NCBI GenBank assembly: GCA_964016885.1
Contig: OZ024757.1
Location: forward strand, 6,820,001 to 6,884,000
Source of the DNA: Eledone cirrhosa
Taxonomy: Eukaryota
Length of the DNA: 64,000 bases
Direction: 5' to 3'
Part shown: piece by piece, positions 1 through 54,738 of the stretch
Layout of the letters: each line of letters starts with the position of its first letter
Position numbering within the stretch: the stretch's first letter is position 1
Translations under genes and position numbers: made by a program
Notes under the pieces: model-generated
The model's input: only the letters and a program-made list of their open reading frames with translations
What the model was told of the DNA's origin: nothing
The model's database searches: none

Positions 1-196
1 CCGCACATGTACCAGTAATTACAGATGGATCCCACTACGGGCGGCTGGCCCACGATCGAAAAGGTAACTCCGCCTGCAAACGGTCATTTTCGAATTCGTT
101 TTCTTCGAAGCACACCATTCGCCGGCGGACTTCAGCTGCCTCATTTAGCATGGGCAGTTTTTCTCGAAAATCACACCACACACAGCCAATGAGTGT
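1..196 (+). repeat. 196-bp satellite monomer (example copy)
   Basis: ccgcacatgtaccagtaattacagat recurs at 1 and 197. Forward copies lie left of each centre and reverse-complement copies lie right of it. Confidence 0.95.
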
Positions 197-9100: not shown

Positions 9101-12100
9101 CACATGTACCAGTAATTACAGATGGATCCCACCACGGGCGGCTGGCCCACGATCGAAAAGGTTACTCCGCCTGCAAACGGTCATTTTCGAATTCGTTTTC
9201 TTCGAAGCACACCATTCGCCGGCGGACTTCAGCTTCCTCATTTAGCATGGGCAGTTTTTCTCGAAAATCACACCACACACAGCAAATATGTGTCCGCACA
9301 TGTACCAGTAATTACAGATCGATTCCGGTGAAAATTCACCGAAAACGGGCCATTCGGCCCTGTGCGTCGATCGTGGGCCGGCCGGAAGTTGACGGATCGA
9401 TGTGTAATTAGAAGTACATGTGCGGACACTCATTGGCTGTGCGTGGTATGCATTTCAGCAAGATATCTCCGTAACATCAAGAGTTATGGCTGTGGAGGCA
9501 CACCTAGTCAAACGTAAACAAGGTATGGAGCGTTTACGCTTCGCGATTTTGTTTACGTTTGACTAGGTGTGCCTCCACAGCCACAACTCTTGATGTTACG
9601 GAGATATCTTGCTGAAATTCATACCACCCACAGCCAATGAGTGTCCGCACATGTACTTCTAATTACACATCGATCCGTCAACATCCGGCCGGCCCACGAT
9701 CGACGCATAGGGCCGGATGGCCCGTTTTCAGTGAATTTTCACCGGAATCGATCTGTAATTACTGGTACATGTGCGGACACTCATTGGCTGTGTGTGGTGT
9801 GATTTTCGAGAAAAACTGCCCATGCTAAATGAGGCAGCTGAAGTCCGCCGGCGAATCGTGTGCTTCGAAGAAAACTAATTCGAAAATGACCGCTTGCAGG
9901 CGTAGTAACCTTTTCGATCGTGGGCCAGCCGCCCCTGTTGGGATCCATCTGTAATTACTGGTACATGTGCGGACACACATTTGCTGTGTGTGGTGTGATT
10001 TTCAAGAAAAACTGCCCATGCTAAATGAGGAAGCTGAAGTCCGCCGGCGAATGGTGTGCTTCGAAGAAAACGAATTCGAAAATGACTATTTGCCGGCGGA
10101 ATCACCTTTTCGGTCCTGGTCCGGCCGGATCTTGCCGGATCGATCGGAAATTTGTGGACCATGTTCGGAAGGCCATTGTGCATGTGTGGTGAAAAAACGT
10201 TGTGTCGAAATCTTCTCGGAAAATAACGGATCGACGGCGGAGATTGCCATTTCGATCGTGGGCCGGCCGGATCTTGTCGGATCGATTCGGACATATGTGC
10301 ATCGTGTTCGCAAGGCCCTTGTCTATGTGTGGTGTGATTTTCATAAAGAAATTCCGAAAAACCCAGTTTTAAATCTGATTTCGCCAAAGAATTTTGGCTA
10401 TCAGATCGGGTTGAAAGGTATGGTTTCTAGTCGATCTGAAAGTCTAAAATGGAATTCACTCGGTTAGCTAACTTTTGATATATCGGAGATATCTTTCTAA
10501 AAATCACACCATACACTCCCAATGAGTGTCTGCACATGTACCAGTAATGACAGATGGATCCCACCACGGGCGGCCGGCCCACGATCGAAAAGGTTACTCC
10601 GAAGCACACCATTCGCCGGCGGACTTCATTTAACATGGGCAGTTTTTCTTGAAGATCACACCACACACAGCCAATGAGTGTCCGCAAATGTACCAGTAAT
10701 TACAGATGGATCCCACTACGGGCGGCTGGCCCACGATCGAAAAGGTAACTCCGCCTGCAAACGGTCATTTTCGAATTCGTTTTCTTCGAAGCACACCATT
10801 CGCCGGCGGACTTCAGCTGCCTCATTTAGCATGGGCAGTTTTTCTCGAAAATCACACCACACACAGCCAATGAGTGTCCGCACATGTACCAGTAATTACA
10901 GATGGATCCCACCACGGGCGGCTGGCCCACGATCGAAAAGGTTACTCCGCCTGCAAACGGTCATTTTCGAATTCGTTTTCTTCGAAGCACACCATTCGCC
11001 GGCGGACTTCAGCTTCCTCATTTAGCATGGGCAGTTTTTCTCGAAAATCACACCACACACAGCAAATATGTGTCCGCACATGTACCAGTAATTACAGATC
11101 GATTCCGGTGAAAATTCACCGAAAACGGGCCATTCGGCCCTGTGCGTCGATCGTGGGCCGGCCGGAAGTTGACGGATCGATGTGTAATTAGAAGTACATG
11201 TGCGGACACTCATTGGCTGTGCGTGGTATGCATTTCAGCAAGATATCTCCGTAACATCAAGAGTTATGGCTGTGGAGGCACACCTAGTCAAACGTAAACA
11301 AGGTATGGAGCGTTTACGCTTCGCGATTTTGTTTACGTTTGACTAGGTGTGCCTCCACAGCCACAACTCTTGATGTTACGGAGATATCTTGCTGAAATTC
11401 ATACCACCCACAGCCAATGAGTGTCCGCACATGTACTTCTAATTACACATCGATCCGTCAACATCCGGCCGGCCCACGATCGACGCATAGGGCCGGATGG
11501 CCCGTTTTCAGTGAATTTTCACCGGAATCGATCTGTAATTACTGGTACATGTGCGGACACTCATTGGCTGTGTGTGGTGTGATTTTCGAGAAAAACTGCC
11601 CATGCTAAATGAGGCAGCTGAAGTCCGCCGGCGAATCGTGTGCTTCGAAGAAAACTAATTCGAAAATGACCGCTTGCAGGCGGAGTAACCTTTTCGATCG
11701 TGGGCCAGCCGCCCCTGTTGGGATCCATCTGTAATTACTGGTACATGTGCGGACACACATTTGCTGTGTGTGGTGTGATTTTCAAGAAAAACTGCCCATG
11801 CTAAATGAGGAAGCTGAAGTCCGCCGGCGAATGGTGTGCTTCGAAGAAAACGAATTCGAAAATGACTATTTGCCGGCGGAATCACCTTTTCGGTCCTGGT
11901 CCGGCCGGATCTTGCCGGATCGATCGGAAATTTGTGGACCATGTTCGGAAGGCCATTGTGCATGTGTGGTGAAAAAACGTTGTGTCGAAATCTTCTCGGA
12001 AAATAACGGATCGCCGGCGGAGATTGCCATTTCGATCGTGGGCCGGCCGGATCTTGTCGGATCGATTCGCACATATGTGCATCGTGTTCGCAAGGCCCTT

Positions 12101-15100
12101 GTCTATGTGTGGTGTGATTTTCATAAAGAAATTCCGAAAAACCCAGTTTTAAATCTGATTTCGCCAAAGAATTTTGGCTATCAGATCGGGTTGAAAGGTA
12201 TGGTTTCTAGTCGATCTGAAAGTCTAAAATGGAATTCACTCGGTTAGCTAACTTTTGATATATCGGAGATATCTTTCTAAAAATCACACCATACACTCCC
12301 AATGAGTGTCTGCACATGTACCAGTAATGACAGATGGATCCCACCACGGGCGGCCGGCCCACGATCGAAAAGGTTACTCCGAAGCACACCATTCGCCGGC
12401 GGACTTCATTTAACATGGGCAGTTTTTCTTGAAGATCACACCACACACAGCCAATGAGTGTCCGCAAATGTACCAGTAATTACAGATGGATCCCACTACG
12501 GGCGGCTGGCCCACGATCGAAAAGGTTACTCCGCCTGCAAACGGTCATTTTCGAATTCGTTTTCTTCGAAGCACACCATTCGCCGGCGGACTTCAGCTGC
12601 CTCATTTAGCATGGGCAGTTTATCTCGAAAATCACACCACACACAGCCAATGAGTGTCCGCACATGTACCAGTAATTACAGATGGATCCCACCACGGGCG
12701 GCTGGCCCACGATCGAAAAGGTTACTCCGCCTGCAAACGGTCATTTTCGAATTCGTTTTCTTCGAAGCACACCATTCGCCGGCGGACTTCAGCTTCCTCA
12801 TTTAGCATGGGCAGTTTTTCTCGAAAATCACACCACACACAGCAAATCTGTGTCCGCACATGTACCAGTAATTACAGATCGATTCCGGTGAAAATTCACC
12901 GAAAACGGGCCATTCGGCCCTGTGCGTCGATCGTGGGCCGGCCGGATGTTGACGGATCGATGTGTAATTAGAAGTACATGTGCGGACACTCATTGGCTGT
13001 GCGTGGTATGCATTTCAGCAAGATATCTCCGTAACATCAAGGGTTATGGCTGTGGAGGCACACCTAGTCAAACGTAAACAAGGTATGGAGCGTTTACGCT
13101 TCGCGATTTTGTTTACGTTTGACTAAGTGTGCCTCCACAGCCACAACTCTTGATGTTACGGAGATATCTTGCTGAAATGCATACCACGCACAGCCAATGA
13201 GTGTCCGCACATGTACCAGTAATTACACATCGATCCGTCAACATGCGGCCGGCCTACGATCGACGCATAGGGCCGGATGGCCCGTTTTCGGTGAATTTTC
13301 ACCAGAATCGATCTGTAATTACTGGTACATGTGCGGACACTCATTTGCTGTGTGTGGTGTGATTTTCAAGACAAACTGCCCATGCTAAATGAGGAAGCTG
13401 AAGTCCGCCGGCGAATGGTGTGCTTCGAAGAAAACTAATTCGAAAATGACCGTTTGCAGGCGGAGTAACCTTTTCGATCGTGGGCCAGCCGCCCGTGGTG
13501 GGATCCATCTGTAATTACTGGTACATGTGCGGACACTCATTGGCTGTGTGTGGTGTGATTTTCGAGAAAAACTGCCCATGCTAAATGAGGCAGCTGAAGT
13601 CCGCCGGCGAATCGTGTGCTTCGAAGAAAACTAATTCGAAAATGACCGCTTGCAGGCGGAGTAACCTTTTCGATCGTGGGCCAGCCGCCCCTGTTGGGAT
13701 CCATCTGTAATTACTGGTACATGTGCGGACACACATTTGCTGTGTGTGGTGTGATTTTCAAGAAAAACTGCCCATGCTAAATGAGGAAGCTGAAGTCCGC
13801 CGGCGAATGGTGTGCTTCGAAGAAAACGAATTCGAAAATGACTATTTGCCGGCGGAATCACCTTTTCGGTCCTGGTCCGGCCGGATCTTGCCGGATCGAT
13901 CGGAAATTTGTGGACCATGTTCGGAAGGCCATTGTGCATGTGTGGTGAAAAAAAGTTGTGTCGAAATCTTCTCGGAAAATAACGGATCGCCGGCGGAGAT
14001 TGCCATTTCGATCGTGGGCCGGCCGGATCTTGTCGGATCGATTCGGACATATGTGCATCGTGTTCGCAAGGCCCTTGTCTATGTGTGGTGTGATTTTCAT
14101 AAAGAAATTCCGAAAAACCCAGTTTTAAATCTGATTTCGCCAAAGAATTTTGGCTATCAGATCGGGTTGAAAGGTTTGGTTTCAAGTCGATCTGAAAGTC
14201 TAAAATGGAATTCACTCGGTTAGCTAACTTTTGATATATCGGAGATATCTTTCTGAAAATCACACCACACACTCCCAATGAGTGTCTGCACATGTACCAG
14301 TAATTACAGATGGATCCCACCACGGGCGGCCGGCCCACGATCGAAAAGGTTACTCCGAAGCACACCATTCGCCGGCGGACTTCATTTAGCATGGGCAGTT
14401 TTTCTTGAAGATCACACCACACACAGCCAATGAGTGTCCGCACATGTACCAGTAATTACAGATGGATCCCACTACGGGCGGCTGGCCCACGATCGAAAAG
14501 GTTACTCCGCCTGCAAACGGTAATTTTCGAATTCGTTTTCTTCGAAGCACACCATTCGCCGGCGGACTTCAGCTGCCTCATTTAGCATGGGCAGCTTTTC
14601 TCGAAAATCACACCACACACAGCCAATGAGTGTCCGCACATGTACCAGTAATTACAGATGGATCACACCACGGGCGGCTGGCCCACGATCGAAAAGGTTA
14701 CTCTGCCTGCAAACGGTCATTTTCGAATTCGTTTTCTTCGAAGCACACCATTCGCCGGCGGACTTCAGCTTCCTCATTTAGCATGGGCAGTTTTTCTCGA
14801 AAATCACACCACACACAGCAAATCTGTGTCCGCACATGTACCAGTAATTACAGATCGATTCCGGTGAAAATTCACCGGAAACGGGCCATTCGGCCCTGTG
14901 CGTCGATCGTGGGCCGGCCGGATGTTGACGGATCGATGTGTAATTAGAAGTACATGTGCGGACACTCATTGGCTGTGCGTGGTATGCATTTCAGCAAGAT
15001 ATCTCCGTAACATCAAGAGTTATGGCTGTGGAGGCACACCTAGTCAAACGTAAACAAGGTATGGAGCGTTTACGCTTCGCGATTTTGTTTACGTTTGACT

Positions 15101-18100
15101 AGGTGTGCCTCCACAGCCACAACTCTTGATGTTACGGAGATATCTTGCTGAAATTCATACCACCCACAGCCAATGAGTGTCCGCACATGTATTTCTAATT
15201 ACACATCGATACGTCAACATCCGGCCGGCCCACGATCGACGCATAGGGCCGGATGGCCCGTTTTCAGTGAATTTTCACCGGAATCGATCTGTAATTACTG
15301 GTACATTGCGGACACACATTTGCTGTGTGTGGTGTGATTTTCAAGAAGAACTGCCCATGCTAAATGAGGAAGCTGAAGTCCGCCGGCGAATGGTGTGCTT
15401 CGAAGAAAACTAATTCGAAAATGACCGTTTGCAGGCGGAGTAACCTTTTCGATCGTGGGCCAGCCGCCCGTGGTGGGATCCATCTGTAATTACTGGTACA
15501 TGTGCGGACACACATTTGCTGTGTGTGGTGTGATTTTCGAGAAAAACTGCCCATGCTAAATGAGGCAGCTGAAGTCCGCCGGCGAATGGTGTGCTTCGAA
15601 GAAAACGAATTCGAAAATGACTATTTGCCGGCGGAATCACCTTTTCGGTCCTGGTCCGGCCGGATCTTGCCGGATCGATCGGAAATTTGTGGACCATGTT
15701 CGGAAGGCCATTGTGCATGTGTGGTGAAAAAAAGTTGTGTCGAAATCTTCTCGGAAAATAACGGATCGCCGGCGGAGATTGCCATTTCGATCGTGGGCCG
15801 GCCGGATCTTGTCGGATCGATTCGGACATATGTGCATCGTGTTCGCAAGGCCCTTGTCTATGTGTGGTGTGATTTTCTTAAAGAAATTCCGAAAAACCCA
15901 GTTTTAAATCTGATTTCGCCAAAGAATTTTGGCTATCAGATCGGGTTGAAAGGTATGGTTTCAAGTCGATATGAAAGTCTAAAATGGAATTCACTCGGTT
16001 AGCTAACTTTTGATATATCGGAGATATCATTCTGAAAATCACACCACACACTCCCAATGAGTGTCTGCACATGTACCAGTAATTACAGATGGATCCCACC
16101 ACGGGCGGCTGGCCCACGATCGAAAAGGTTACTCCGAAGCACACCATTCGCCGGCGGACTTCATTTAGCATGGGCAGTTTTTCTTGAAGATCACACCACA
16201 CACAGCCAATGAGTGTCCGCACATGTACCAGTAATTACAGATGGATCCCACTACGGGCGGCTGGCCCACGATCGAAAAGGTTACTCCGCCTGCAAACGGT
16301 CATTTTCGAATTCGTTTTCTTCGAAGCACACCATTCGCCGGCGGACTTCAGCTGCCTCATTTAGCATGGGCAGCTTTTCTCGAAAATCACACCACACACA
16401 GCAAATCTGTGTCCGCACATGTACCAGTAATTACAGATCGATTCCGGTGAAAATTCACCGGAAACGGGCCATTCGGCCCTGTGCGTCGATCGTGGGCGTG
16501 CCGGATGTTGACGGATCGATGTGTAATTAGAAGTACATGTGCGGACACTCATTGGCTGTGCGTGGTATGCATTTCAGCAAGATATCTCCGTAACATCAAG
16601 AGTTATGGCTGTGGAGGCACACCTAGTCAAACGTAAACAAGGTATGGAGCGTTTACGCTTCGCGATTTTGTTTACGTTTGACTAGGTGTGCCTCCACAGC
16701 CACAACTCTTGATGTTACGGAGATATCTTGCTGAAATTCATACCACCCACAGCCAATGAGTGTCCGCACATGTACTTCTAATTACACATCGATCCGTCAA
16801 CATCCGGCCGGCCCACGATCGACGCATAGGGCCGGATGGCCCGTTTTCAGTGAATTTTCACCGGAATCGATCTGTAATTACTGGTACATGTGCGGACACA
16901 CATTTGCTGTGTGTGGTGTGATTTTCAAGAAGAACTGCCCATGCTAAATGAGGAAGCTGAAGTCCGCCGGCTAATGGTGTGCTTCGAAGAAAACTAATTC
17001 GAAAATGACCGTTTGCAGGCGGAGTAACCTTTTCGATCGTGGGCCAGCCGCCCGTGGTGGGATCCATCTGTAATTACTGGTACATGTGCGGACACACATT
17101 TGCTGTGTGTGGTGTGATTTTCGAGAAAAACTGCCCATGCTAAATGAGGCAGCTGAAGTCCGCCGGCGAATGGTGTGCTTCGAAGAAAACGAATTCGAAA
17201 ATGACTATTTGCCGGCGGAATCACCTTTTCGGTCCTGGTCCGGCCGGATCTTGCCGGATCGATCGGAAATTTGTGGACCATGTTCGGAAGGCCATTGTGC
17301 ATATGTGGTGAAAAAAAGTTGTGTCGAAATCTTCTCGGAAAATAACGGATCGCCGGCGGAGATTGCCATTTCGATCGTGGGCCGGCCGGATCTTGTCGGA
17401 TCGATTCGGACATATGTGCATCGTGTTCGCAAGGCCCTTGTCTATGTGTGGTGTGATTTTCATAAAGAAATTCCGAAAAACCCAGTTTTAAATCTGATTT
17501 CGCCAAAGAATTTTGGCTATCAGATCGGGTTGAAAGGTATGGTTTCAAGTCGATCTGAAAGTCTAAAATGGAATTCACTCGGTTAGCTAACTTTTGATAT
17601 ATCGGAGATATCTTTCTGAAAATCACACCACACACTCCCAATGAGTGTCTGCACATGTACCAGTAATTACAGATGGATCCCACCACGGGCGGCTGGCCCA
17701 CGATCGAAAAGGTTACTCCGAAGCACACCATTCGCCGGCGGACTTCATTTAGCATGGGCAGTTTTTCTTGAAGATCACACCACACACAGCCAATGAGTGT
17801 CCGCACATGTACCAGTAATTACAGATGGATCCCACTACGGGCGGCTGGCCCACGATCGAAAAGGTTACTCCGCCTGCAAACGGTCATTTTCGAATTCGTT
17901 TTCTTCGAAGCACACCATTCGCCGGCGGACTTCAGCTGCCTCATTTAGCATGGGCAGCTTTTCTCGAAAATCACACCACACACAGCCAATGAGTGTCCGC
18001 ACATGTACCAGTAATTACAGATGGATCACACCACGGGCGGCTGGCCCACGATCGAAAAGGTTACTCCGCCTGCAAACGGTCATTTTCGAATTCGTTTTCT

Positions 18101-21100
18101 TCGAAGCACACCATTCGCCGGCGGACTTCAGCTTCCTCATTTAGCATGGGCAGTTTTTCTCGAAAATCACACCACACACAGCAAATCTGTGTCCGCACAT
18201 GTACCAGTAATTACAGATCGATTCCGGTGAAAATTCACCGGAAACGGGCCATTCGGCCCTGTGCGTCGATCGTAGGCCGGCCGGATGTTGACGGATCGAT
18301 GTGTAATTAGAAGTACATGTGCGGACACTCATTGGCTGTGCGTGGTATGCATTTCAGCAAGATATCTCCGTAACATCAAGAGTTATGGCTGTGGAGGCAC
18401 ACCTAGTCAAACGTAAACAAGGTATGGAGCGTTTACGCTTCGCGATTTTGTTTACGTTTGACTAGGTGTGCCTCCACAGCCACAACTCTTGATGTTACGG
18501 AGATATCTTGCTGAAATTCATACCACCCACAGCCAATGAGTGTCCGCACATGTACTTCTAATTACACATCGATCCGTCAACATCCGGCCGGCCCACGATC
18601 GACGCATAGGGCCGGATGGCCCGTTTTCAGTGAATTTTCACCGGAATCGATCTGTAATTACTGGTACATTGCGGACACACATTTGCTGTGTGTGGTGTGA
18701 TTTTCAAGAAGAACTGCCCATGCTAAATGAGGAAGCTGAAGTCCGCCGGCGAATGGTGTGCTTCGAAGAAAACTAATTCGAAAATGACCGTTTGCAGGCG
18801 GAGTAACTTTTTCGATCGTGGGCCAGCCGCCCGTGGTGGGATCCATCTGTAATTACTGGTACATGTGCGGACACACATTTGCTGTGTGTGGTGTGATTTT
18901 CGAGAAAAACTGCCCATGCTAAATGAGGCAGCTGAAGTCCGCCGGCGAATGGTGTGCTTCGAAGAAAACGAATTCGAAAATGACTATTTGCCGGCGGAAT
19001 CACCTTTTTGGTCCTGGTCCGGCCGGATCTTGCCGGATCGATCGGAAATTTGTGGACCATGTTCGGAAGGCCATTGTGCATGTGTGGTGAAAAAAAGTTG
19101 TGTCGAAATCTTCTCGGAAAATAACGGATCGCCGGCGGAGATTGCCATTTCGATCGTGGGCCGGCCGGATCTTGTCGGATCGATTCGGACATATGTGCAT
19201 CGTGTTCGCAAGGCCCTTGTCTATGTGTGGTGTGATTTTCATAAAGAAATTCCGAAAAACCCAGTTTTAAATCTGATTTCGCCAAAGAATTTTGGCTATC
19301 AGATCGGGTTGAAAGGTATGGTTTCAAGTCGATCTAAAAGTCTAAAATGGAATTCACTCGGTTAGCTAACTTTTGATATATCGGAGATATCTTTCTGAAA
19401 ATCACACCACACACTCCCAATGAGTGTCTGCACATGTACCAGTAATTACAGATGGATCCCACCACGGGCGGCTGGCCCACGATCGAAAAGGTTACTCCGA
19501 AGCACACCATTCGCCAGCGGACTTCATTTAGCATGGGCAGTTTTTCTTGAAGATCACACCACACACAGCCAATGAGTGTCCGCACATGTACCAGTAATTA
19601 CAGATGGATCCCACTACGGGCGGCTGGCCCACGATCGAAAAGGTTACTCCGCCTGCAAACGGTAATTTTCGAATTCGTTTTCTTCGAAGCACACCATTCG
19701 CCGGCGGACTTCAGCTGCCTCATTTAGCATGGGCAGCTTTTCTCGAAAATCACACCACACACAGCCAATGAGTGTCCGCACATGTACCAGTAATTACAGA
19801 TGGATCACACCACGGGCGGCTGGCCCACGATCGAAAAGGTTACTCCGCCTGCAAACGGTCATTTTCGAATTCGTTTTCTTCGAAGCACACCATTCGCCGG
19901 CGGACTTCAGCTTCCTCATTTAGCATGGGCAGTTTTTCTCGAAAATCACACCACACACAGCAAATCTGTGTCCGCACATGTACCAGTAATTACAGATCGA
20001 TTCCGGTGAAAATTCACCGGAAACGGGCCATTCGGCCCTGTGCGTCGATCGTGGGCCGGCCGGATGTTGACGGATCGATGTGTAATTAGAAGTACATGTG
20101 CGGACACTCATTGGCTGTGCGTGGTATGCATTTCAGCAAGATATCTCCGTAACATCAAGAGTTATGGCTGTGGAGGCACACCTAGTCAAACGTAAACAAG
20201 GTATGGAGCGTTTACGCTTCGCGATTTTGTTTACGTTTGACTAGGTGTGCCTCCACAGCCACAACTCTTGATGTTACGGAGATATCTTGCTGAAATTCAT
20301 ACCACCCACAGCCAATGAGTGTCCGCACATGTACTTCTAATTACACATCGATACGTCAACATCCGGCCGGCCCACGATCGACGCATAGGGCCGGATGGCC
20401 CGTTTTCAGTGAATTTTCACCGGAATCGATCTGTAATTACTGGTACATTGCGCGCACACATTTGCTGTGTGTGGTGTGATTTTCAAGAAGAACTGCCCAT
20501 GCTAAATGAGGAAGCTGAAGTCCGCCGGCGAATGGTGTGCTTCGAAGAAAACTAATTCGAAAATGACCGTTTGCAGGCGGAGTAACCTTTTCGATCGTGG
20601 GCCAGCCGCCCGTGGTGGGATCCATCTGTAATTACTGGTACATGTGCGGACACACATTTGCTGTGTGTGGTGTGATTTTCGAGAAAAACTGCCCATGCTA
20701 AATGAGGCAGCAGAAGTCCGCCGGCGAATGGTGTGCTTCGAAGAAAACGAATTCGAAAATGACTATTTGCCGGCGGAATCACCTTTTCGGTCCTGGTCCG
20801 GCCGGATCTTGCCGGATCGATCGGAAATTTGTGGACCATGTTCGGAAGGCCATTGTGCATGTGTGGTGAAAAAAAGTTGTGTCGAAATCTTCTCGGAAAA
20901 TAACGGATCGCCGGCGGAGATTGCCATTTCGATCGTGGGCCGGCCGGATCTTGTCGGATCGATTCGGACATATGTGCATCGTGTTCGCAAGGCCCTTGTC
21001 TATGTGTGGTGTGATTTTCTTAAAGAAATTCCGAAAAACCCAGTTTTAAATCTGATTTCGCCAAAGAATTTTGGCTATCAGATCGGGTTGAAAGGTATGG

Positions 21101-24100
21101 TTTCAAGTCGATATGAAAGTCTAAAATGGAATTCACTCGGTTAGCTAACTTTTGATATATCGGAGATATCTTTCTGAAAATCACACCACACACTCCCAAT
21201 GAGTGTCTGCACATGTACCAGTAATTACAGATGGATCCCACCACGGGCGGCTGGCCCACGATCGAAAAGGTTACTCCGAAGCACACCATTCGCCGGCGGA
21301 CTTCATTTAGCATGGGCAGTTTTTCTTGAAGATCACACCACACACAGCCAATGAGTGTCCGCACATGTACCAGTAATTACAGATGGATCCCACTACGGGC
21401 GGCTGGCCCACGATCGAAAAGGTTACTCCGCCTGCAAACGGTAATTTTCGAATTCGTTTTCTTCGAAGCACACCATTCGCCGGCGGACTTCAGCTGCCTC
21501 ATTTAGCATGGGCAGCTTTTCTCGAAAATCACACCACACACAGCCAATGAGTGTCCGCACATGTACCAGTAATTACAGATGGATCACACCACGGGCGGCT
21601 GGCCCACGATCGAAAAGGTTACTCCGCCTGCAAACGGTCATTTTCGAATTCGTTTTCTTCGAAGCACACCATTCGCCGGCGGACTTCAGCTTCCTCATTT
21701 AGCATGGGCAGTTTTTCTCGAAAATCACACCACACACAGCAAATCTGTGTCCGCACATGTACCAGTAATTACAGATCGATTCCGGTGAAAATTCACCGGA
21801 AACGGGCCATTCGGCCCTGTGCGTCGATCGTGGGCCGGCCGGATGTTGACGGATCGATGTGTAATTAGAAGTACATGTGCGGACACTCATTGGCTGTGCG
21901 TGGTATGCATTTCAGCAAGATATCTCCGTAACATCAAGAGTTATGGCTGTGGAGGCACACCTAGTCAAACGTAAACAAGGTATGGAGCGTTTACGCTTCG
22001 CGATTTTGTTTACGTTTGACTAGGTGTGCCTCCACAGCCACAACTCTTGATGTTACGGAGATATCTTGCTGAAATTCATACCACCCACAGCCAATGAGTG
22101 TCCGCACATGTACTTCTAATTACACATCGATACGTCAACATCCGGCCGGCCCACGATCGACGCATAGGGCCGGATGGCCCGTTTTCAGTGAATTTTCACC
22201 GGAATCGATCTGTAATTACTGGTACATTGCGCGCACACATTTGCTGTGTGTGGTGTGATTTTCAAGAAGAACTGCCCATGCTAAATGAGGAAGCTGAAGT
22301 CCGCCGGCGAATGGTGTGCTTCGAAGAAAACTAATTCGAAAATGACCGTTTGCAGGCGGAGTAACCTTTTCGATCGTGGGCCAGCCGCCCGTGGTGGGAT
22401 CCATCTGTAATTACTGGTACATGTGCGGACACACATTTGCTGTGTGTGGTGTGATTTTCGAGAAAAACTGCCCATGCTAAATGAGGCAGCAGAAGTCCGC
22501 CGGCGAATGGTGTGCTTCGAAGAAAACGAATTCGAAAATGACTATTTGCCGGCGGAATCACCTTTTCGGTCCTGGTCCGGCCGGATCTTGCCGGATCGAT
22601 CGGAAATTTGTGGACCATGTTCGGAAGGCCATTGTGCATGTGTGGTGAAAAAAAGTTGTGTCGAAATCTTCTCGGAAAATAACGGATCGCCGGCGGAGAT
22701 TGCCATTTCGATCGTGGGCCGGCCGGATCTTGTCGGATCGATTCGGACATATGTGCATCGTGTTCGCAAGGCCCTTGTCTATGTGTGGTGTGATTTTCTT
22801 AAAGAAATTCCGAAAAACCCAGTTTTAAATCTGATTTCGCCAAAGAATTTTGGCTATCAGATCGGGTTGAAAGGTATGGTTTCAAGTCGATATGAAAGTC
22901 TAAAATGGAATTCACTCGGTTAGCTAACTTTTGATATATCGGAGATATCTTTCTGAAAATCACACCACACACTCCCAATGAGTGTCTGCACATGTACCAG
23001 TAATTACAGATGGATCCCACCACGGGCGGCTGGCCCACGATCGAAAAGGTTACTCCGAAGCACACCATTCGCCGGCGGACTTCATTTAGCATGGGCAGTT
23101 TTTCTTGAAGATCACACCACACACAGCCAATGAGTGTCCGCACATGTACCAGTAATTACAGATGGATCCCACTACGGGCGGCTGGCCCACGATCGAAAAG
23201 GTTACTCCGCCTGCAAACGGTAATTTTCGAATTCGTTTTCTTCGAAGCACACCATTCGCCGGCGGACTTCAGCTGCCTCATTTAGCATGGGCAGCTTTTC
23301 TCGAAAATCACACCACACACAGCCAATGAGTGTCCGCACATGTACCAGTAATTACAGATGGATCACACCACGGGCGGCTGGCCCACGATCGAAAAGGTTA
23401 CTCCGCCTGCAAACGGTCATTTTCGAATTCGTTTTCTTCGAAGCACACCATTCGCCGGCGGACTTCAGCTTCCTCATTTAGCATGGGCAGTTTTTCTCGA
23501 AAATCACACCACACACAGCAAATCTGTGTCCGCACATGTACCAGTAATTACAGATCGATTCCGGTGAAAATTCACCGGAAACGGGCCATTCGGCCCTGTG
23601 CGTCGATCGTGGGCCGGCCGGATGTTGACGGATCGATGTGTAATTAGAAGTACATGTGAGGACACTCATTGGCTGTGCGTGGTATGCATTTCAGCAAGAT
23701 ATCTCCGTAACATCAAGAGTTATGGCTGTGGAGGCACACCTAGTCAAACGTAAACAAGGTATGGAGCGTTTACGCTTCGCGATTTTGTTTACGTTTGACT
23801 AGGTGTGCCTCCACAGCCACAACTCTTGATGTTACGGAGATATCTTGCTGAAATTCATACCACCCACAGCCAATGAGTGTCCGCACATGTACTTCTAATT
23901 ACACATCGATACGTCAACATCCGGCCGGCCCACGATCGACGCATAGGGCCGGATGGCCCGTTTTCAGTGAATTTTCACCGGAATCGATCTGTAATTACTG
24001 GTACATTGCGGACACACATTTGCTGTGTGTGGTGTGATTTTCAAGAAGAACTGCCCATGCTAAATGAGGAAGCTGAAGTCCGCCGGCGAATGGTGTGCTT

Positions 24101-27100
24101 CGAAGAAAACTAATTCGAAAATGACCGTTTGCAGGCGGAGTAACCTTTTCGATCGTGGGCCAGCCGCCCGTGGTGGGATCCATCTGTAATTACTGGTACA
24201 TGTGCGGACACACATTTGCTGTGTGTGGTGTGATTTTCGAGAAAAACTGCCCATGCTAAATGAGGCAGCTGAAGTCCGCCGGCGAATGGTGTGCTTCGAA
24301 GAAAACGAATTCGAAAATGACTATTTGCCGGCGGAATCACCTTTTCGGTCCTGGTCCGGCCGGATCTTGCCGGATCGATCGGAAATTTGTGGACCATGTT
24401 CGGAAGGCCATTGTGCATGTGTGGTGAAAAAAAGTTGTGTCGAAATCTTCTCGGAAAATAACGGATCGCCGGCGGAGATTGCCATTTCGATCGTGGGCCG
24501 GCCGGATCTTGTCGGATCGATTCGGACATATGTGCATCGTGTTCGCAAGGCCCTTGTCTATGTGTGGTGTGATTTTCATAAAGAAATTCCGAAAAACCCA
24601 GTTTTAAATCTGATTTCGCCAAAGAATTTTGGCTATCAGATCGGGTTGAAAGGTATGGTTTCAAGTCGATCTGAAAGTCGAAAATGGAATTCACTCGGTT
24701 AGCTAACTTTTGATATATCGGAGATATCTTTCTGAAAATCACACCACACACTCCCAATGCGTGTCTGCACATGTACCAGTAATTACAGATGGATCCCACC
24801 ACGGGCGGCTGGCCCACGATCGAAAAGGTTACTCCGAAGCACACCATTCGCCGGCGGACTTCATTTAGCATGGGCAGTTTTTCTTGAAGATCACACCACA
24901 CACAGCCAATGAGTGTCCGCACATGTACCAGTAATTACAGATGGATCCCACTACGGGCGGCTGGCCCACGATCGAAAAGGTTACTCCGCCTGCAAACGGT
25001 CATTTTCGAATTCGTTTTCTTCGAAGCACACCATTCGCCGGCGGACTTCAGCTGCCTCATTTAGCATGGGCAGCTTTTCTCGAAAATCACACCACACACA
25101 GCCAATGAGTGTCCGCACATGTACCAGTAATTACAGATGGATCCCACTACGGGCGGCTGGCCCACGATCGAAAAGGTTACTCCGCCTGCAAACGGTCATT
25201 TTCGAATTCGTTTTCTTCGAAGCACACCATTCGCCGGCGGACTTCAGCTTCCTCATTTAGCATGGGCAGTTTTTCTCGAAGATCACACCACACACAGCAA
25301 ATCTGTGTCCGCACATGTACCAGTAATTACAGATCGATTCCGGTGAAAATTCACCGGAAACGGGCCATTCGGCCCTGTGCGTCGATCGTGGGCCGGCCGG
25401 ATGTTGACGGATCGATGTGTAATTAGAAGTACATGTGCGGACACTCATTGGCTGTGCGTGGTATGCATTTCAGCAAGATATCTCCGTAACATCAAGAGTT
25501 ATGGCTGTGGAGGCACACCTAGTCAAACGTAAACAAGGTATGGAGCGTTTACGCTTCGCGATTTTGTTTACGTTTGACTAGGTGTGCCTCCACAGCCACA
25601 ACTCTTGATGTTACGGAGATATCTTGCTGAAATTCATACCACCCACAGCCAATGAGTGTCCGCACATGTACTTCTAATTACACATCGATACGTCAACATC
25701 CGGCCGGCCCACGATCGACGCATAGGGCCGGATGGCCCGTTTTCAGTGAATTTTCACCGGAATCGATCTGTAATTACTGGTACATTGCGCGCACACATTT
25801 GCTGTGTGTGGTGTGATTTTCAAGAAGAACTGCCCATGCTAAATGAGGAAGCTGAAGTCCGCCGGCGAATGGTGTGCTTCGAAGAAAACTAATTCGAAAA
25901 TGACCGTTTGCAGGCGGAGTAACCTTTTCGATCGTGGGCCAGCCGCCCGTGGTGGGATCCATCTGTAATTACTGGTACATGTGCGGACACACATTTGCTG
26001 TGTGTGGTGTGATTTTCGAGAAAAACTGCCCATGCTAAATGAGGCAGCAGAAGTCCGCCGGCGAATGGTGTGCTTCGAAGAAAACGAATTCGAAAATGAC
26101 TATTTGCCGGCGGAATCACCTTTTCGGTCCTGGTCCGGCCGGATCTTGCCGGATCGATCGGAAATTTGTGGACCATGTTCGGAAGGCCATTGTGCATGTG
26201 TGGTGAAAAAAAGTTGTGTCGAAATCTTCTCGGAAAATAACGGATCGCCGGCGGAGATTGCCATTTCGATCGTGGGCCGGCCGGATCTTGTCGGATCGAT
26301 TCGGACATATGTGCATCGTGTTCGCAAGGCCCTTGTCTATGTGTGGTGTGATTTTCTTAAAGAAATTCCGAAAAACCCAGTTTTAAATCTGATTTCGCCA
26401 AAGAATTTTGGCTATCAGATCGGGTTGAAAGGTATGGTTTCAAGTCGATATGAAAGTCTAAAATGGAATTCACTCGGTTAGCTAACTTTTGATATATCGG
26501 AGATATCTTTCTGAAAATCACACCACACACTCCCAATGAGTGTCTGCACATGTACCAGTAATTACAGATGGATCCCACCACGGGCGGCTGGCCCACGATC
26601 GAAAAGGTTACTCCGAAGCACACCATTCGCCGGCGGACTTCATTTAGCATGGGCAGTTTTTCTTGAAGATCACACCACACACAGCCAATGAGTGTCCGCA
26701 CATGTACCAGTAATTACAGATGGATCCCACTACGGGCGGCTGGCCCACGATCGAAAAGGTTACTCCGCCTGCAAACGGTAATTTTCGAATTCGTTTTCTT
26801 CGAAGCACACCATTCGCCGGCGGACTTCAGCTGCCTCATTTAGCATGGGCAGCTTTTCTCGAAAATCACACCACACACAGCCAATGAGTGTCCGCACATG
26901 TACCAGTAATTACAGATGGATCACACCACGGGCGGCTGGCCCACGATCGAAAAGGTTACTCCGCCTGCAAACGGTCATTTTCGAATTCGTTTTCTTCGAA
27001 GCACACCATTCGCCGGCGGACTTCAGCTTCCTCATTTAGCATGGGCAGTTTTTCTCGAAAATCACACCACACACAGCAAATCTGTGTCCGCACATGTACC

Positions 27101-30100
27101 AGTAATTACAGATCGATTCCGGTGAAAATTCACCGGAAACGGGCCATTCGGCCCTGTGCGTCGATCGTGGGCCGGCCGGATGTTGACGGATCGATGTGTA
27201 ATTAGAAGTACATGTGCGGACACTCATTGGCTGTGCGTGGTATGCATTTCAGCAAGATATCTCCGTAACATCAAGAGTTATGGCTGTGGAGGCACACCTA
27301 GTCAAACGTAAACAAGGTATGGAGCGTTTACGCTTCGCGATTTTGTTTACGTTTGACTAGGTGTGCCTCCACAGCCACAACTCTTGATGTTACGGAGATA
27401 TCTTGCTGAAATTCATACCACCCACAGCCAATGAGTGTCCGCACATGTACTTCTAATTACACATCGATACGTCAACATCCGGCCGGCCCACGATCGACGC
27501 ATAGGGCCGGATGGCCCGTTTTCAGTGAATTTTCACCGGAATCGATCTGTAATTACTGGTACATTGCGGACACACATTTGCTGTGTGTGGTGTGATTTTC
27601 AAGAAGAACTGCCCATGCTAAATGAGGAAGCTGAAGTCCGCCGGCGAATGGTGTGCTTCGAAGAAAACTAATTCGAAAATGACCGTTTGCAGGCGGAGTA
27701 ACCTTTTCGATCGTGGGCCAGCCGCCCGTGGTGGGATCCATCTGTAATTACTGGTACATGTGCGGACACACATTTGCTGTGTGTGGTGTGATTTTCGAGA
27801 AAAACTGCCCATGCTAAATGAGGCAGCTGAAGTCCGCCGGCGAATGGTGTGCTTCGAAGAAAACGAATTCGAAAATGACTATTTGCCGGCGGAATCACCT
27901 TTTCGGTCCTGGTCCGGCCGGATCTTGCCGGATCGATCGGAAATTTGTGGACCATGTTCGGAAGGCCATTGTGCATGTGTGGTGAAAAAAAGTTGTGTCG
28001 AAATCTTCTCGGAAAATAACGGATCGCCGGCGGAGATTGCCATTTCGATCGTGGGCCGGCCGGATCTTGTCGGATCGATTCGGACATATGTGCATCGTGT
28101 TCGCAAGGCCCTTGTCTATGTGTGGTGTGATTTTCATAAAGAAATTCCGAAAAACCCAGTTTTAAATCTGATTTCGCCAAAGAATTTTGGCTATCAGATC
28201 GGGTTGAAAGGTATGGTTTCAAGTCGATCTGAAAGTCGAAAATGGAATTCACTCGGTTAGCTAACTTTTGATATATCGGAGATATCTTTCTGAAAATCAC
28301 ACCACACACTCCCAATGCGTGTCTGCACATGTACCAGTAATTACAGATGGATCCCACCACGGGCGGCTGGCCCACGATCGAAAAGGTTACTCCGAAGCAC
28401 ACCATTCGCCGGCGGACTTCATTTAGCATGGGCAGTTTTTCTTGAAGATCACACCACACACAGCCAATGAGTGTCCGCACATGTACCAGTAATTACAGAT
28501 GGATCCCACTACGGGCGGCTGGCCCACGATCGAAAAGGTTACTCCGCCTGCAAACGGTCATTTTCGAATTCGTTTTCTTCGAAGCACACCATTCGCCGGC
28601 GGACTTCAGCTGCCTCATTTAGCATGGGCAGCTTTTCTCGAAAATCACACCACACACAGCCAATGAGTGTCCGCACATGTACCAGTAATTACAGATGGAT
28701 CCCACTACGGGCGGCTGGCCCACGATCGAAAAGGTTACTCCGCCTGCAAACGGTCATTTTCGAATTCGTTTTCTTCGAAGCACACCATTCGCCGGCGGAC
28801 TTCAGCTTCCTCATTTAGCATGGGCAGTTTTTCTCGAAGATCACACCACACACAGCAAATCTGTGTCCGCACATGTACCAGTAATTACAGATCGATTCCG
28901 GTGAAAATTCACCGGAAACGGGCCATTCGGCCCTGTGCGTCGATCGTGGGCCGGCCGGATGTTGACGGATCGATGTGTAATTAGAAGTACATGTGCGGAC
29001 ACTCATTGGCTGTGCGTGGTATGCATTTCAGCAAGATATCTCCGTAACATCAAGAGTTATGGCTGTGGAGGCACACCTAGTCAAACGTAAACAAGGTATG
29101 GAGCGTTTACGCTTCGCGATTTTGTTTACGTTTGACTAGGTGTGCCTCCACAGCCACAACTCTTGATGTTACGGAGATATCTTGCTGAAATTCATACCAC
29201 CCACAGCCAATGAGTGTCCGCACATGTACTTCTAATTACACATCGATCCGTCAACATCCGGCCGGCCCACGATCGACGCATAGGGCCGGATGGCCCGTTT
29301 TCAGTGAATTTTCACCGGAATCGATCTGTAATTACTGGTACCTGTGCGGACACACATTTGCTGTGTGTGGTGTGATTTTCAAGAAGAACTGCCCATGCTA
29401 AATGAGGAAGCTGAAGTCCGCCGGCGAATGGTGTGCTTCGAAGAAAACTAATTCGAAAATGACCGTTTGCAGGCGGAGTAACCTTTTCGATCGTGGGCCA
29501 GCCGCCCGTGGTGGGATCCATCTGTAATTACTGGTACATGTGCGGACACACATTTGCTGTGTGTGGTGTGATTTTCGAGAAAAACTGCCCATGCTAAATG
29601 AGGCAGCTGAAGTCCGCCGGCGAATGGTGTGCTTCGAAGAAAACGAATTCGAAAATGACTATTTGCCGGCGGAATCACCTTTTCGGTCCTGGTCCGGCCG
29701 GATCTTGCCGGATCGATCGGAAATTTGTGGACCATGTTCGGAAGGCCATTGTGCATGTGTGGTGAAAAAAAGTTGTGTCGAAATCTTCTCGGAAAATAAC
29801 GGATCGCCGGCGGAGATTGCCATTTCGATCGTGGGCCGGCCGGATCTTGTCGGATCGATTCGGACATATGTGCATCGTGTTCGCAAGGCCCTTGTCTATG
29901 TGTGGTGTGATTTTCATAAAGAAATTCCGAAAAACCCAGTTTTAAATCTGATTTCGCCAAAGAATTTTGGCTATCAGATCGGGTTGAAAGGTATGGTTTC
30001 AAGTCGATCTGAAAGTCTAAAATGGAATTCACTCGGTTAGCTAACTTTTGATATATCGGAGATATCTTTCTGAAAATCACACCACACACTCCCAATGAGT

Positions 30101-33100
30101 GTCTGCACATGTACCAGTAATTACAGATGGATCCCACCACGGGCGGCTGGCCCACGATCGAAAAGGTTACTCCGAAGCACACCATTCGCCGGCGGACTTC
30201 ATTTAGCATGGGCAGTTTTTCTTGAAGATCACACCACACACAGCCAATGAGTGTCCGCACATGTACCAGTAATTACAGATGGATCCCACTACGGGCGGCT
30301 GGCCCACGATCGAAAAGGTTACTCCGCCTGCAAACGGTCATTTTCGAATTCGTTTTCTTCGAAGCACACCATTCGCCGGCGGACTTCAGCTGCCTCATTT
30401 AGCATGGGCAGCTTTTCTCGAAAATCACACCACACACAGCCAATGAGTGTCCGCACATGTACCAGTAATTACAGATGGATCCCACTACGGGCGGCTGGCC
30501 CACGATCGAAAAGGTTACTCCGCCTGCAAACGGTCATTTTCGAATTCGTTTTCTTCGAAGCACACCATTCGCCGGCGGACTTCAGCTTCCTCATTTAGCA
30601 TGGGCAGTTTTTCTCGAAGATCACACCACACACAGCAAATCTGTGTCCGCACATGTACCAGTAATTACAGATCGATTCCGGTGAAAATTCACCGGAAACG
30701 GGCCATTCGGCCCTGTGCGTCGATCGTGGGCCGGCCGGATGTTGACGGATCGATGTGTAATTAGAAGTACATGTGCGGACACTCATTGGCTGTGCGTGGT
30801 ATGCATTTCAGCAAGATATCTCCGTAACATCAAGAGTTATGGCTGTGGAGGCACACCTAGTCAAACGTAAACAAGGTATGGAGCGTTTACGCTTCGCGAT
30901 TTTGTTTACGTTTGACTAGGTGTGCCTCCACAGCCACAACTCTTGATGTTACGGAGATATCTTGCTGAAATTCATACCACCCACAGCCAATGAGTGTCCG
31001 CACATGTACTTCTAATTACACATCGATCCGTCAACATCCGGCCGGCCCACGATCGACGCATAGGGCCGGATGGCCCGTTTTCAGTGAATTTTCACCGGAA
31101 TCGATCTGTAATTACTGGTACCTGTGCGGACACACATTTGCTGTGTGTGGTGTGATTTTCAAGAAGAACTGCCCATGCTAAATGAGGAAGCTGAAGTCCG
31201 CCGGCGAATGGTGTGCTTCGAAGAAAACTAATTCGAAAATGACCGTTTGCAGGCGGAGTAACCTTTTCGATCGTGGGCCAGCCGCCCGTGGTGGGATCCA
31301 TCTGTAATTACTGGTACATGTGCGGACACACATTTGCTGTGTGTGGTGTGATTTTCGAGAAAAACTGCCCATGCTAAATGAGGCAGCTGAAGTCCGCCGG
31401 CGAATGGTGTGCTTCGAAGAAAACGAATTCGAAAATGACTATTTGCCGGCGGAATCACCTTTTCGGTCCTGGTCCGGCCGGATCTTGCCGGATCGATCGG
31501 AAATTTGTGGACCATGTTCGGAAGGCCATTGTGCATGTGTGGTGAAAAAAAGTTGTGTCGAAATCTTCTCGGAAAATAACGGATCGCCGGCGGAGATTGC
31601 CATTTCGATCGTGGGCCGGCCGGATCTTGTCGGATCGATTCGGACATATGTGCATCGTGTTCGCAAGGCCCTTGTCTATGTGTGGTGTGATTTTCATAAA
31701 GAAATTCCGAAAAACCCAGTTTTAAATCTGATTTCGCCAAAGAATTTTGGCTATCAGATCGGGTTGAAAGGTATGGTTTCAAGTCGATCTGAAAGTCTAA
31801 AATGGAATTCACTCGGTTAGCTAACTTTTGATATATCGGAGATATCTTTCTGAAAATCACACCACACACTCCCAATGAGTGTCTGCACATGTACCAGTAA
31901 TTACAGATGGATCCCACCACGGGCGGCTGGCCCACGATCGAAAAGGTTACTCCGAAGCACACCATTCGCCGGCGGACTTCATTTAGCATGGGCAGTTTTT
32001 CTTGAAGATCACACCACACACAGCCAATGAGTGTCCGCACATGTACCAGTAATTACAGATGGATCCCACTACGGGCGGCTGGCCCACGATCGAAAAGGTT
32101 ACTCCGCCTGCAAACGGTCATTTTCGAATTCGTTTTCTTCGAAGCACACCATTCGCCGGCGGACTTCAGCTGCCTCATTTAGCATGGGCAGCTTTTCTCG
32201 AAAATCACACCACACACAGCCAATGAGTGTCCGCACATGTACCAGTAATTACAGATGGATCCCACTACGGGCGGCTGGCCCACGATCGAAAAGGTTACTC
32301 CGCCTGCAAACGGTCATTTTCGAATTAGTTTTCTTCGAAGCACACCATTCGCCGGCGGACTTCAGCTTCCTCATTTAGCATGGGCAGTCTTTCTCGAAAA
32401 TCACACCACACACAGCAAATGTGTGTCCGCACATGTACCAGTAATTACAGATGTATCCCACCACGGGCGGCTGGCCCACGATCGAAAAGGTTACTCCGCC
32501 TGCAAACGGTCATTTTCGAATTAGTTTTCTTCGAAGCACACCATTCGCCGGCGGACTTCAGCTTCCTCATTTAGCATGGGCAGTTTTTCGTGAAAATCAC
32601 ACCACACACAGCAAATGTGTGTCCGCACATGTACCAGTAATTACAGATCGATTCCGGTGAAAATTCACTGAAAACGGGCCATCCGGCCCTGTGCGTCGAT
32701 CGTGGGCCGGCCGGATGTTGACGGATCGATGTGTAATTAAAAGTACATGTGCGGACACTCATTGGCTGTGCGTGGTATGCATTTCAGCAAGATATCTCCG
32801 TAACATCAAGAGTTGTGGCTGTGGAGGCACACCTAGTCAAACGTAAACAAAATCGCGAAGCGTATACGCTCCAGAGCTTGTTTACGTTTGACTAGGTGTG
32901 CCTCCACAGCCATAACTCTTGATGTTACGGAGATATCTTGCTGAAATGCATACCACGCACAGCCAATGAGTGTCCGCACATGTACTTCTAATTACACATC
33001 GATCCGTCAACATCCGGCCGGCCCACGATCGACGCACAGGGCCGAATGGCCCGTTTTCAGTGAATTTTCATCGGAATCGATCTGTAATTACTGGTACATG

Positions 33101-33338
33101 TGCGGACCCACATTTGCTGTGTGTGGTGTGATTTTCGAGAAAAACTGCCCATGCTAAATGAGGCAGCTGAAGTCCGCCGGCGAATCGTGTGCTTCGAAGA
33201 AAACGAATTCGAAAATGACCATTTGCAGGCGGAGTAACCTTTTCGATCGTGGGCCAGCCGCCCGTGGTGGGATCCATCTGTAATTACTGGTACATGTGCG
33301 GACACTCATTGGCTGTGTGTGGTGTGATTTTCGAGAAA
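1..33338. repeat. Palindromic macrosatellite array, ~1780-bp unit built from 196-bp monomers; runs off the left edge
   Basis: Near-identical units. Loop starts at 425, 2402, 4182, 5962, 7742, 9522, 11302, 13082, 15058, 16641, 18421, 20200, 21979, 23758, 25537, 27316, 29095, 30875 and 32851 (spacings 1779/1780, with 1976/1977 and 1583 variants). The ORF track repeats with the same period. Confidence 0.98.
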
Positions 33339-33945
33339 GGGTCCAGGGATTAGCCTATTGGGGAGTGCCACAATTGCATTGAGAAGGCAGCGCCCGGCCT
33401 CAGTGGAGAGGGGGTATAGCAACACCTTGAGGTGGCCAGGCCGGATATCATCAGCACCTCCGCTCCTGCTAGCTAGGAAGGACTTGATGGCGGACATGAT
33501 GTTTGCATTGGAAGCCACAAGGAGCAAGTGGGGATTGGGTGGGTCTATGGGTCTGAGATCAGCAAGTGGTTCAGGGTGCTTGAGTCTCAGGGCAGCCAGG
33601 ACCTCCTCAGTGGGTTGGAGGGCAGTGTCCTCTGAGGCAACCACTCTGACTGCAGCCAAGACATCTCCCATGATTAATTTGGCGTTTACACGGTCACGCA
33701 AACGCTTGGTGCTGGAGGATTGGGGGCACCCGAGAGCGGGTGGTGTGGTGTCCTTAGGCACGCTCGGAATGGGCACTTACCCAAAGGACGAAACACTGGC
33801 CCTGACAAAGGTTGCTGTCGACCGGCCGCCTTGGACAGCTCCAAAGAAGGGCAGGCTGAGGTCGAGTGGATTCCAGGGCACTCCCAATCGAGGAACCAAG
33901 GGCATCGGCAACCGGGCTGGTCTCAGTATCCTGAGTGGGATCTAG
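33339..33945 (-). mobile_element. CRE-clade-like non-LTR retrotransposon fragment (region upstream of the RT core), 3'-truncated at the satellite
   Basis: ORF 33306-33776 has GDVLAAVRVVAS...LAALRLKHP...AIKSFLASRSGGADDIRPGHLKVLL. This resembles the KHP / SF..S.GG.DG.RP.HLK (RT domain 0) motifs of CRE-type elements. Stops and frameshifts lie upstream. Confidence 0.72.
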
Positions 33946-34414: not shown

Positions 34415-35000
34415 ACATATGTGTTGTTGTTATTGTCACTGATGCGGGAGTTGGCTTCCTCTTGTTAATGGTAGTGTTTGCTGGTAAGTTGTTGGTGTAT
34501 ACACATATGTTGTTGTTGTTAATGTCACCGCTGCTGTCACTGCCTTCCTCTTGTTGTTGGTAAGTTGTTGGTGTATACACATATGTTGTTGTTGTCAATG
34601 TCACCGCTGCTGTCACTCCCTTCCTCTTGTTAATGGTAGTGTTTGCTGGTAAGTTGTTGCTGTATACACATATGTTGTTGTTGTTAATGTCACCGCTGCT
34701 GTAGCTGCCTTCCTCTTGTTGATGGTAGTGTTTGTTGGTAAGATGTTGGTGTATACACATATGTTGTTGTTGTTAATGTCACCGCTGCTGTAGCTGCCTT
34801 CCTCTTGTTGATGGTAGTGTTTGCTGGTAAGTTGTTGCTGTATACACATATGTTGTTGTTGTTAATGTCACCGCTGCTGTCACTCCCTTCCTCTTGTTAA
34901 TGGTAGTGTTTGCTGGTAAGTTGTTGGTGTATACATATATATGTTGTTGTTGTTAATGTCACCGCTGCTGTCACTGCCTTCCTCTTGTTGATGTTGGTGG
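34415..35000. repeat. 89-bp minisatellite, about 6-7 copies
   Basis: The acacatatg core (acatatatatg in the last copy) recurs at 34501, 34577, 34666, 34755, 34844 and 34933. Confidence 0.9.
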
Positions 35001-39456: not shown

Positions 39457-40656
<1,200 letters not shown>

Positions 40657-45826: not shown

Positions 45827-45994
45827 GGATTGGCAGTATCGGTAGATGGTCGGACGCCATGCTTTGATGCATAGAGTTACGGCCCTTTCCATTATGAGTT
45901 CAAATCCCGCCTTTCATCCTTACGGGGTCGATAAAATAAAGTACCAGTAATGTACTGGGGTAATAGCTGGCCGTGTGCCAAAAGTAGAAACAAT
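45827..45994 (+). mobile_element. tRNA-derived SINE (internally deleted), inverted relative to its neighbour
   Basis: ggattggcagtatcggtag...gagttcaaatcccgcc...gtcgataaaataaagtaccag...agaaacaatt. Confidence 0.85.
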
Positions 45995-46002
45995 TATATA
46001 TC

Positions 46003-53950: not shown

Positions 53951-54738
53951 AGTAATTATTGAAGAACTCTAAAAACTCGAGATATGAGAATGTACGAGTA
54001 ATTTTGGGTAAGAAATGGCCCTCTATGTACTTATATATGATCGGGTGTGTATCAATGTATATGCAAGCAGTCCTAACAATTGTTTATTACGGAGTGTAGA
54101 AAAGTACACGATATCCGCTGTGTTAACAATACAAATAATACGTACTTTATATTTCAAGTCCAAGAGTAAAGTCAGGAAAGACCAGGAAAGCTAATTGTTC
54201 AGATGTTGGTGATTTAGACCTATTTCTCACTGTCCTGTAAAATGTGGAACAACAAATTCACGATGTAGCGTAGTTTCTCATGAAATGAAATATTTAATCA
54301 TGTAGGAGATGGAACACCTATCCTGGAACATGTAGCTCACTCTATGTTATCTACAGAATATTAACTTTCACCTTAACATGAGATAATTGCTATACAAGAT
54401 ATAATTAGATTAATTAAAGCTATAATTAAGATAGCAGGTACGTGGTGTCGTTGGTAATGTTTACCTGATCATAAATAACACCGGTGTCATACGTTAAAAG
54501 TCCCTGACCTAATTAAATACCTTCAGCCAGACCTTCAGTTATATCAATTCACTCCATCAATTGTATCCAACCCCTGGTAAAACAAGCAGCATCACTCAGT
54601 GAAATATTTATTACGTATCAACGAGGGAGTCTCCTACCTGGTTACTTGACCTGGTAGAAATAGCAGCCAAATATCACTCTCTACTGTCTTACAACAAGAA
54701 AGACCATATTCTGCAGTTTAGTCACAAACCCCCACATG

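Follow-up and report, generated by a model that had tools for sequence, protein, structure and literature searches.

The window, a stretch of 64,000 nucleotides from Eledone cirrhosa, carries a satellite array with a G+C content of about 49% over its first 33,338 bases, whereas the rest of the window is AT-richer. Between positions 1 and 33338 we counted 19 palindrome centres, spaced by periods of 1779-1780 bp in 14 of the 18 intervals, 1976-1977 bp in three, and 1583 bp in one. Each higher-order unit consists of two core arms of about 200 bp around a 27-nt centre, oppositely oriented 196-bp monomers on both sides of this core, and an asymmetric junction of degenerate monomers that closes the unit. 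The arms are about 96% complementary across 460 bp, and ungapped extension carries them to about 560 bp in 8 of the 19 units. Three right-hand monomers are present in units 1 and 8, while units 2-7 and units 9-18 each lack a different one of them; from this we infer that a unit of about 1976 bp gave rise to two deletion derivatives that were amplified separately. Adjacent recent units differ by 1-12 positions per ~1780 bases in all 12 pairs compared.

Several local irregularities were seen within the units. Unit 10 (16035-16641) is missing one left monomer, which corresponds to the 1583-bp period, and its remaining left monomer is of a hybrid type. The right core arms of units 1 (425) and 8 (13082) have a common patch at offsets 108-110, 136, and 146 that resembles the normal monomer and suggests gene conversion between monomer types. 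A nested inverted repeat lies in each arm, e.g. at 32591-32786 (62-nt arms, 84% complementary, 72 nt apart), so that each unit has four orientation changes and more than one possible fold. The asymmetric junction contains a small hairpin at 31745-31801 (25-nt arms, 80% complementary, 7-nt loop) flanked by older arms that are 71-93% complementary, and this hairpin is possibly an older fold-back centre. No Rfam match for a structured RNA was obtained at E<=0.1 over 30800-33400.

At its right end the array breaks off after 66 bp of a monomer and shows no distinct terminal sequence; the left end is outside the window. The border abuts the relic of a non-LTR retrotransposon ORF (Table 1). In a check for membership of the RLE-type (CRE/R2-like) elements, this relic aligned with the part of P0001 that precedes its RVT_1 domain, which starts at residue 259, and the relic is thus cut at the array edge just before its reverse transcriptase domain would begin. 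P0001 also carries putative zinc knuckle and restriction-like endonuclease motifs, as judged by eye. Because the retroelement is cut in the middle of an ORF, the array edge is a breakpoint and not the end of a retrotransposon. No more satellite pieces were found in 33346-64000. The flanking DNA includes an 89-bp sequence repeated in tandem about 5 times (34478-34993) that lies upstream of the relic and overlaps a stop-free minus-strand frame of 186 aa, two minus-strand C2H2 zinc-finger arrays with an 84-bp periodicity (39457-40656 and 51688-53968), each split across frames and of a style that may point to an octopod, a LINE ORF at 45988-47684 with RVT_1 and a PHD finger, continued in a second frame, and microsatellites.

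Table 1 Features of the satellite array, its last unit, and the array border.
Feature	Position	Strand	Remarks
Satellite array, 19 palindromic higher-order units	1..33338	none	196-bp monomers in both orientations; left side runs past window start
Switch interval inside monomer	32267..32327	none	Left identical to recent units; right is a diverged right-arm-type monomer
Two monomers left of unit 19 core	32272..32651	-	Right-arm-type variants; nearest other monomers 5 and 3 differences away
Left core arm, unit 19	32651..32850	+	Long monomer variant; marks at 32683 and 32815 that are right-arm in the other 18 units
Reversed 27-nt centre	32851..32877	none	Exact match, including both stems (32835-32907), to contigs from X1 and X11
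Perfect 12-bp palindromic tip	32859..32870	none	Broken in 18 forward loops by a common substitution matching 32865
Right core arm, unit 19	32878..33077	-	32878-33107: 1 (X1 contig) and 3 (X11 contig) differences per 230 bases
Array-end monomers	33077..33338	+	A complete monomer without a clear arm type, then a 66-bp truncated monomer
Non-LTR retrotransposon ORF relic	33339..33776	-	50% identity over 121 aa to P0001 residues 118-238

The reversed unit at the array edge

The loop reads ggtatgg... in 17 of the 19 centres and ggtctgg..., one base different, in unit 1, and the loop of unit 19 is directly seen to be reversed. It differs from the reversed loop of unit 1 at two positions (32865 and 32876) and from that of its neighbour at three (32865, 32874, and 32876). 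Our recount agreed with the initial annotation, which had reported 17 centres with one loop, a variant in the first, and at 32851 a reversed form with two differences from the first. That annotation also described the arm-specific variants as swapped. This is true of the marks situated 35 and 167 bases from the loop, which are fixed in all 18 forward units, exchanged in unit 19, and phased with the loop in every one of the 19 units. A third mark (offset 159), equally fixed in the 18 forward units, is unswapped, unit 19 having the same base there on both of its arms. Of eight 150-bp windows between 32400 and 33100, seven gave a better score for the reversed alignment than for the forward one, the exception being the window at 32700.

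The orientation changes inside a monomer and in register. No base differs between the monomer at 32076-32271 and the normal left monomer of the neighbouring unit, and the first mismatch of the 1780-bp register is at 32327, which places the switch at 32267-32327, the interval given earlier. The monomers between this point and the unit 19 core carry a right-arm-type variant at 32327/32523. The reversed part extends for about 1 kb and stops at the array border, as seen at one array end of one haplotype. A difficulty with such units is that an orientation can be assigned to them only by reference to the asymmetric part of the unit, which lies more than 560 bp from the loop. Long reads or an assembly are consequently needed to establish it, and read counts of flip and flop 27-mers are uninformative because the two are reverse complements of each other and hence the same double-stranded sequence.

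Unit 19 is also clearly diverged from all the others. Over 427 bases, its reversed core shows 10-12 differences from the cores of the 16 recent units, compared with 0-4 among these 16, and 15 from those of units 1 and 8. Across 32201-33338, the best match is the reversed unit 8 (96.9% identity). The reversed neighbour reaches only 95.0%, which rules out a fresh flip of the neighbouring unit. A fold-back read chimera was rejected too, as it would be an exact copy and unit 19 is 3-5% from any reversed unit. Two substitutions are common to all 18 forward loops and absent from unit 19; one of them breaks the 12-bp tip, which unit 19 alone keeps perfect. Arm-to-arm differences number 14 of 460 in unit 19, versus 16-21 in units 2-18.

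Given the core divergence, the retained tip, and the exact unit 19 loop found in other runs that lack the majority loop (see below), unit 19 probably represents an older and widespread form, from which the other 18 units would be a derived local expansion. The term "isomer", applied to unit 19 by the initial annotation, is thus inappropriate for what appears to be a separate, older lineage of the unit. A tree of the 29 distinct array monomers, with 2 of its 26 inner branches well supported, left the three diverged monomers of unit 19 in an unresolved group and gives no polarity. The old core may have always been at this locus or may have come from another array. The full monomer at 33077 shows at least 5 differences from every other monomer and is not of a clean left-arm type; it has in common with right-side monomers a rare variant at 33186. 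These features speak for a patchwork history rather than a single clean flip.

The palindrome centre and its occurrence in sequencing runs

The centre hairpin folds with a z-score of about -13, and none of 200 shuffled sequences folded as well; a strong hairpin was predicted for each of the three centres folded. In the predicted structure, mismatches occur near the tip and the fold-back point lies within the 27-mer, which is not an unpaired spacer. The left core arm aligns with the start of the monomer, as does the first loop half with the gcgaat segment of the monomer, the middle being weak. Reads of run X15 contain a sister sequence with 7 stem changes, in which the stem continues into the monomer without folding back (joint 32878-33171, 802+395 reads). 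On the basis of these alignments, the centre would represent the fold-back point of a long monomer variant rather than an inserted spacer. Exact-match scans of viral contigs and of metagenome contigs with the stem returned 0 matches in either set, and a viral or prokaryotic origin of the stem was rejected on these grounds.

Of 17 public sequencing runs listed, 13 contained part of 30800-33600. Eight run rows with six organism labels held 36-57% of the satellite-stretch words, which suggests either an unusual cross-species conservation or shared trace DNA; one run from the same study as two of the holders had next to none of the words. Five rows with small shares (0.06-0.10; two wastewater, one air, and organisms C and D) were left out as evidence.

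Four runs were aligned over 32835-33620, a stretch that begins to the right of the switch, and 24 of the 1664 pieces were inspected. X1 and X11, which come from different studies and carry two further organism labels, each provided an 87-base contig with 0 differences over 73 bases (32835-32907). Neither has the G>C change at 32876, which is required for either of the forward loop types, and the majority loop is absent. The exact centre of unit 19 is therefore found in 2 of the 4 runs, at a low depth at the loop (7.3 in X1 and 2 in X11). From these contigs, the unit 19 centre is a real sequence and the form found elsewhere, and the 18 forward loops were probably derived locally. The X1 and X11 signal could nevertheless be trace DNA of the same species and not that of separate species. 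X8, the best holder, has a summed depth of 12,759 in the loop bin, its loop variants being outside the 40 of 96 variant rows listed, and summed depths of 51,341 for the stem and up to 1.6 million for the monomer, neither of which is a copy number. X15 is a RAD-seq run with zero depth at the loop bin and is hence silent on the loop. A sister monomer family with a changed stem and no fold-back was seen in X8, X15, and X1 at 32878-33170. The satellite family as a whole greatly exceeds this array in size. No read bridging the array border at 33338/33339 was found among the 24 of 1664 pieces.

Origin of the orientation change

We consider it probable that unit 19 is a reversed, diverged, older relic joined to a younger expansion of 18 units by a one-off crossover between oppositely oriented 196-bp monomers. 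The process would begin with a long monomer variant folding back on itself to create the palindromic core, after which two arm marks would arise in one ancestral core. One copy would then gain the loop substitutions and amplify in tandem, first as the ~1976-bp unit and then as its two 1780-bp deletion derivatives. Since every unit contains monomers in both orientations, units can join either way round, and a crossover at 32267-32327, one monomer out of register (period 1976), would leave the old core in reversed orientation at the edge. Subsequently, a deletion or rearrangement would cut the array against the retroelement and erase any second breakpoint. The initial annotation had proposed a crossover between inverted arms as one possible cause, and this part of it fits a switch that lies inside a monomer, in register, and with no foreign bases. 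Ectopic recombination between inverted subunits is likewise the proposed origin of INV_2 in the TmSat2 satellite of Tribolium madens, in the available text of PMC13081366.

A clean inversion of the whole unit fits less well, given the monomer at 33077, which is not of left-arm type and carries the 33186 variant of right-side monomers, and the unswapped mark at offset 159. Only one breakpoint is visible. The switch is 524-584 bp from the loop and the border only 461 bp from it, so that the mirror position of the switch falls past the border; a reciprocal arm-to-arm inversion is for this reason indistinguishable from a single crossover with another reversed copy.

An unlikely alternative is that a mobile palindromic cassette with a widespread core, either a foldback-like element or a reinserted circle, hit the retroelement and that the array grew from it or beside it, unit 19 being its end. 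The retroelement cut in mid-ORF at the array edge would be explained in this manner, as would a core found with very few changes in other runs and at great depth in X8, and satellite circles are known from Tribolium freemani (PMC12581902, available text). Against this, the array ends 66 bp into a monomer with no terminal sequence of its own, and the 52 ORFs listed for 33000-64000, 5 of which were scanned against Pfam, included none noted as a transposase.

It is rather improbable that the assembly mis-joined two real loci inside the monomer at 32267-32327. The junction does fall in a stretch of about 60 bp that is alike in both monomer types, and none of the 24 of 1664 pieces inspected, from the alignment over 32835-33620, spans it. 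Nevertheless, private variants recur consistently in blocks across units, as accurate long reads would give, unit 19 is a real sequence at 3-5% from any reversed unit, and the extra-monomer periods of 1976-1977 bp also follow units 1 and 8.

Hairpin resolution of the parvovirus/poxvirus kind was the other cause put forward by the initial annotation, and it is not supported. Recurrent processing, in which palindromes are extruded as cruciforms or nicked and resolved as hairpins, with centres flipping repeatedly as in poxvirus or parvovirus ends, appears very unlikely. In its favour, the predicted hairpin is strong with mismatches near its tip, the core looks conserved across run labels, and the arms of unit 19 differ slightly less from each other than those of units 2-18. 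In contrast, 18 of the 19 units point in one direction with none of the 16 recent units flipped, the arms are still about 4% different with marks fixed in phase, and the reversed unit is diverged instead of being an exact complement. According to the available text of PMC8956199, poxvirus telomeres are AT-rich and covalently closed, they have a resolution site served by a viral resolvase, and every cycle regenerates flip and flop as exact complements; the two forms would then be expected in similar numbers. The likeness consists of an imperfect palindrome with mismatches near the tip and tandem repeats in inverted orientation beside it. Here, the centres are chromosome-internal in the assembly, and no free end was seen; the two orientations occur 18:1 and are 2-3% diverged (2-3 loop differences and 10-15 of 427 core differences). 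The G+C content of the centres is 48-49% (0.48-0.49), so they are not AT-rich, and a poxvirus resolution motif is absent within 200 bp of the 2 out of 19 centres scanned. The stem moreover has no exact match in the viral or metagenome contigs. The reversed unit is therefore likely an ordinary array-edge effect and not a sign of repeatedly flipping hairpins.

Comparison with other palindromic satellites

By analogy, the array behaves like the dyad-symmetry satellites of Tribolium. It has tandem higher-order units of related subunits (196-bp monomers, 1780/1976-bp units, 19 centres) and, within each unit, long inverted arms whose turn comes from truncated monomers with no foreign DNA (the middle ~65 bp aligns weakly). 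In TmSat2, related subunits in opposite orientation similarly form a palindrome inside the unit and whole units switch orientation, as described in the available part of PMC13081366. The inverted arms of TmSat2 are about 300 bp long, compared with about 560 bp here, and its INV_2 is present at 6428 sites that are 98.2% alike and lie mid-array, whereas the Eledone array has one switch, at the edge; the animals differ and the likeness is structural.

In TfSat01 of Tribolium freemani, a truncated monomer meets a reversed truncated monomer, the stems are predicted to have loops of 9-27 bp, and the turn sequences are 95-99.9% conserved (PMC12581902, available text). The turn is made from truncated monomers without foreign DNA in both cases, but the TfSat01 turns separate multi-kilobase subarrays, whereas here the turn recurs within the unit, once per 1.8 kb. 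The 1061-bp satellite of Tribolium brevicornis, termed the most prominent intra-unit dyad reported (cited in the available text of PMC13081366), likewise has long inverted segments inside one unit, with arms of about 470 bp as opposed to the ~560 bp reached here in 8 of 19 units by ungapped extension. Strand switches are common by-products of array evolution in human satellite arrays as well, and about 89.6% of those in alpha-satellite are in diverged monomeric regions (bioRxiv 10.64898/2026.07.22.740206, available text). Orientation switches arise during array evolution in both systems; a switch in the human arrays does not resemble a flipped loop, as their units lack an internal palindrome.

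We found no published account of such a satellite in octopus or cephalopods in the open-access literature, most subscription journals being outside this scope, and array-scale dyad-symmetry satellites are documented only in Tribolium according to the available text of PMC13081366. A wider reading, which we regard as doubtful, is that the fold-back core is a conserved structural element of related species, cruciform-forming or protein-bound and possibly centromeric, which makes arrays switch orientation at their ends throughout the genome, with tandem expansion enabled by the broken tip. The array would then be a dyad-symmetry system outside Tribolium with arms longer than those cited in PMC13081366 (available text). 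If this were true, dyad-symmetry satellites would be extended to another animal group, and one could test directly if tandem amplification is limited by a perfect hairpin tip. On the preferred reading of a one-off crossover with an older relic, the reversed unit reflects ordinary satellite evolution and is useful as a dated marker that keeps the older centre. The satellite itself, with its ~560-bp arms and apparently conserved core, is of more interest than the reversed unit. Its palindromic units are joinable either way round, yet rarely are so, with 1 switch among 19 units.
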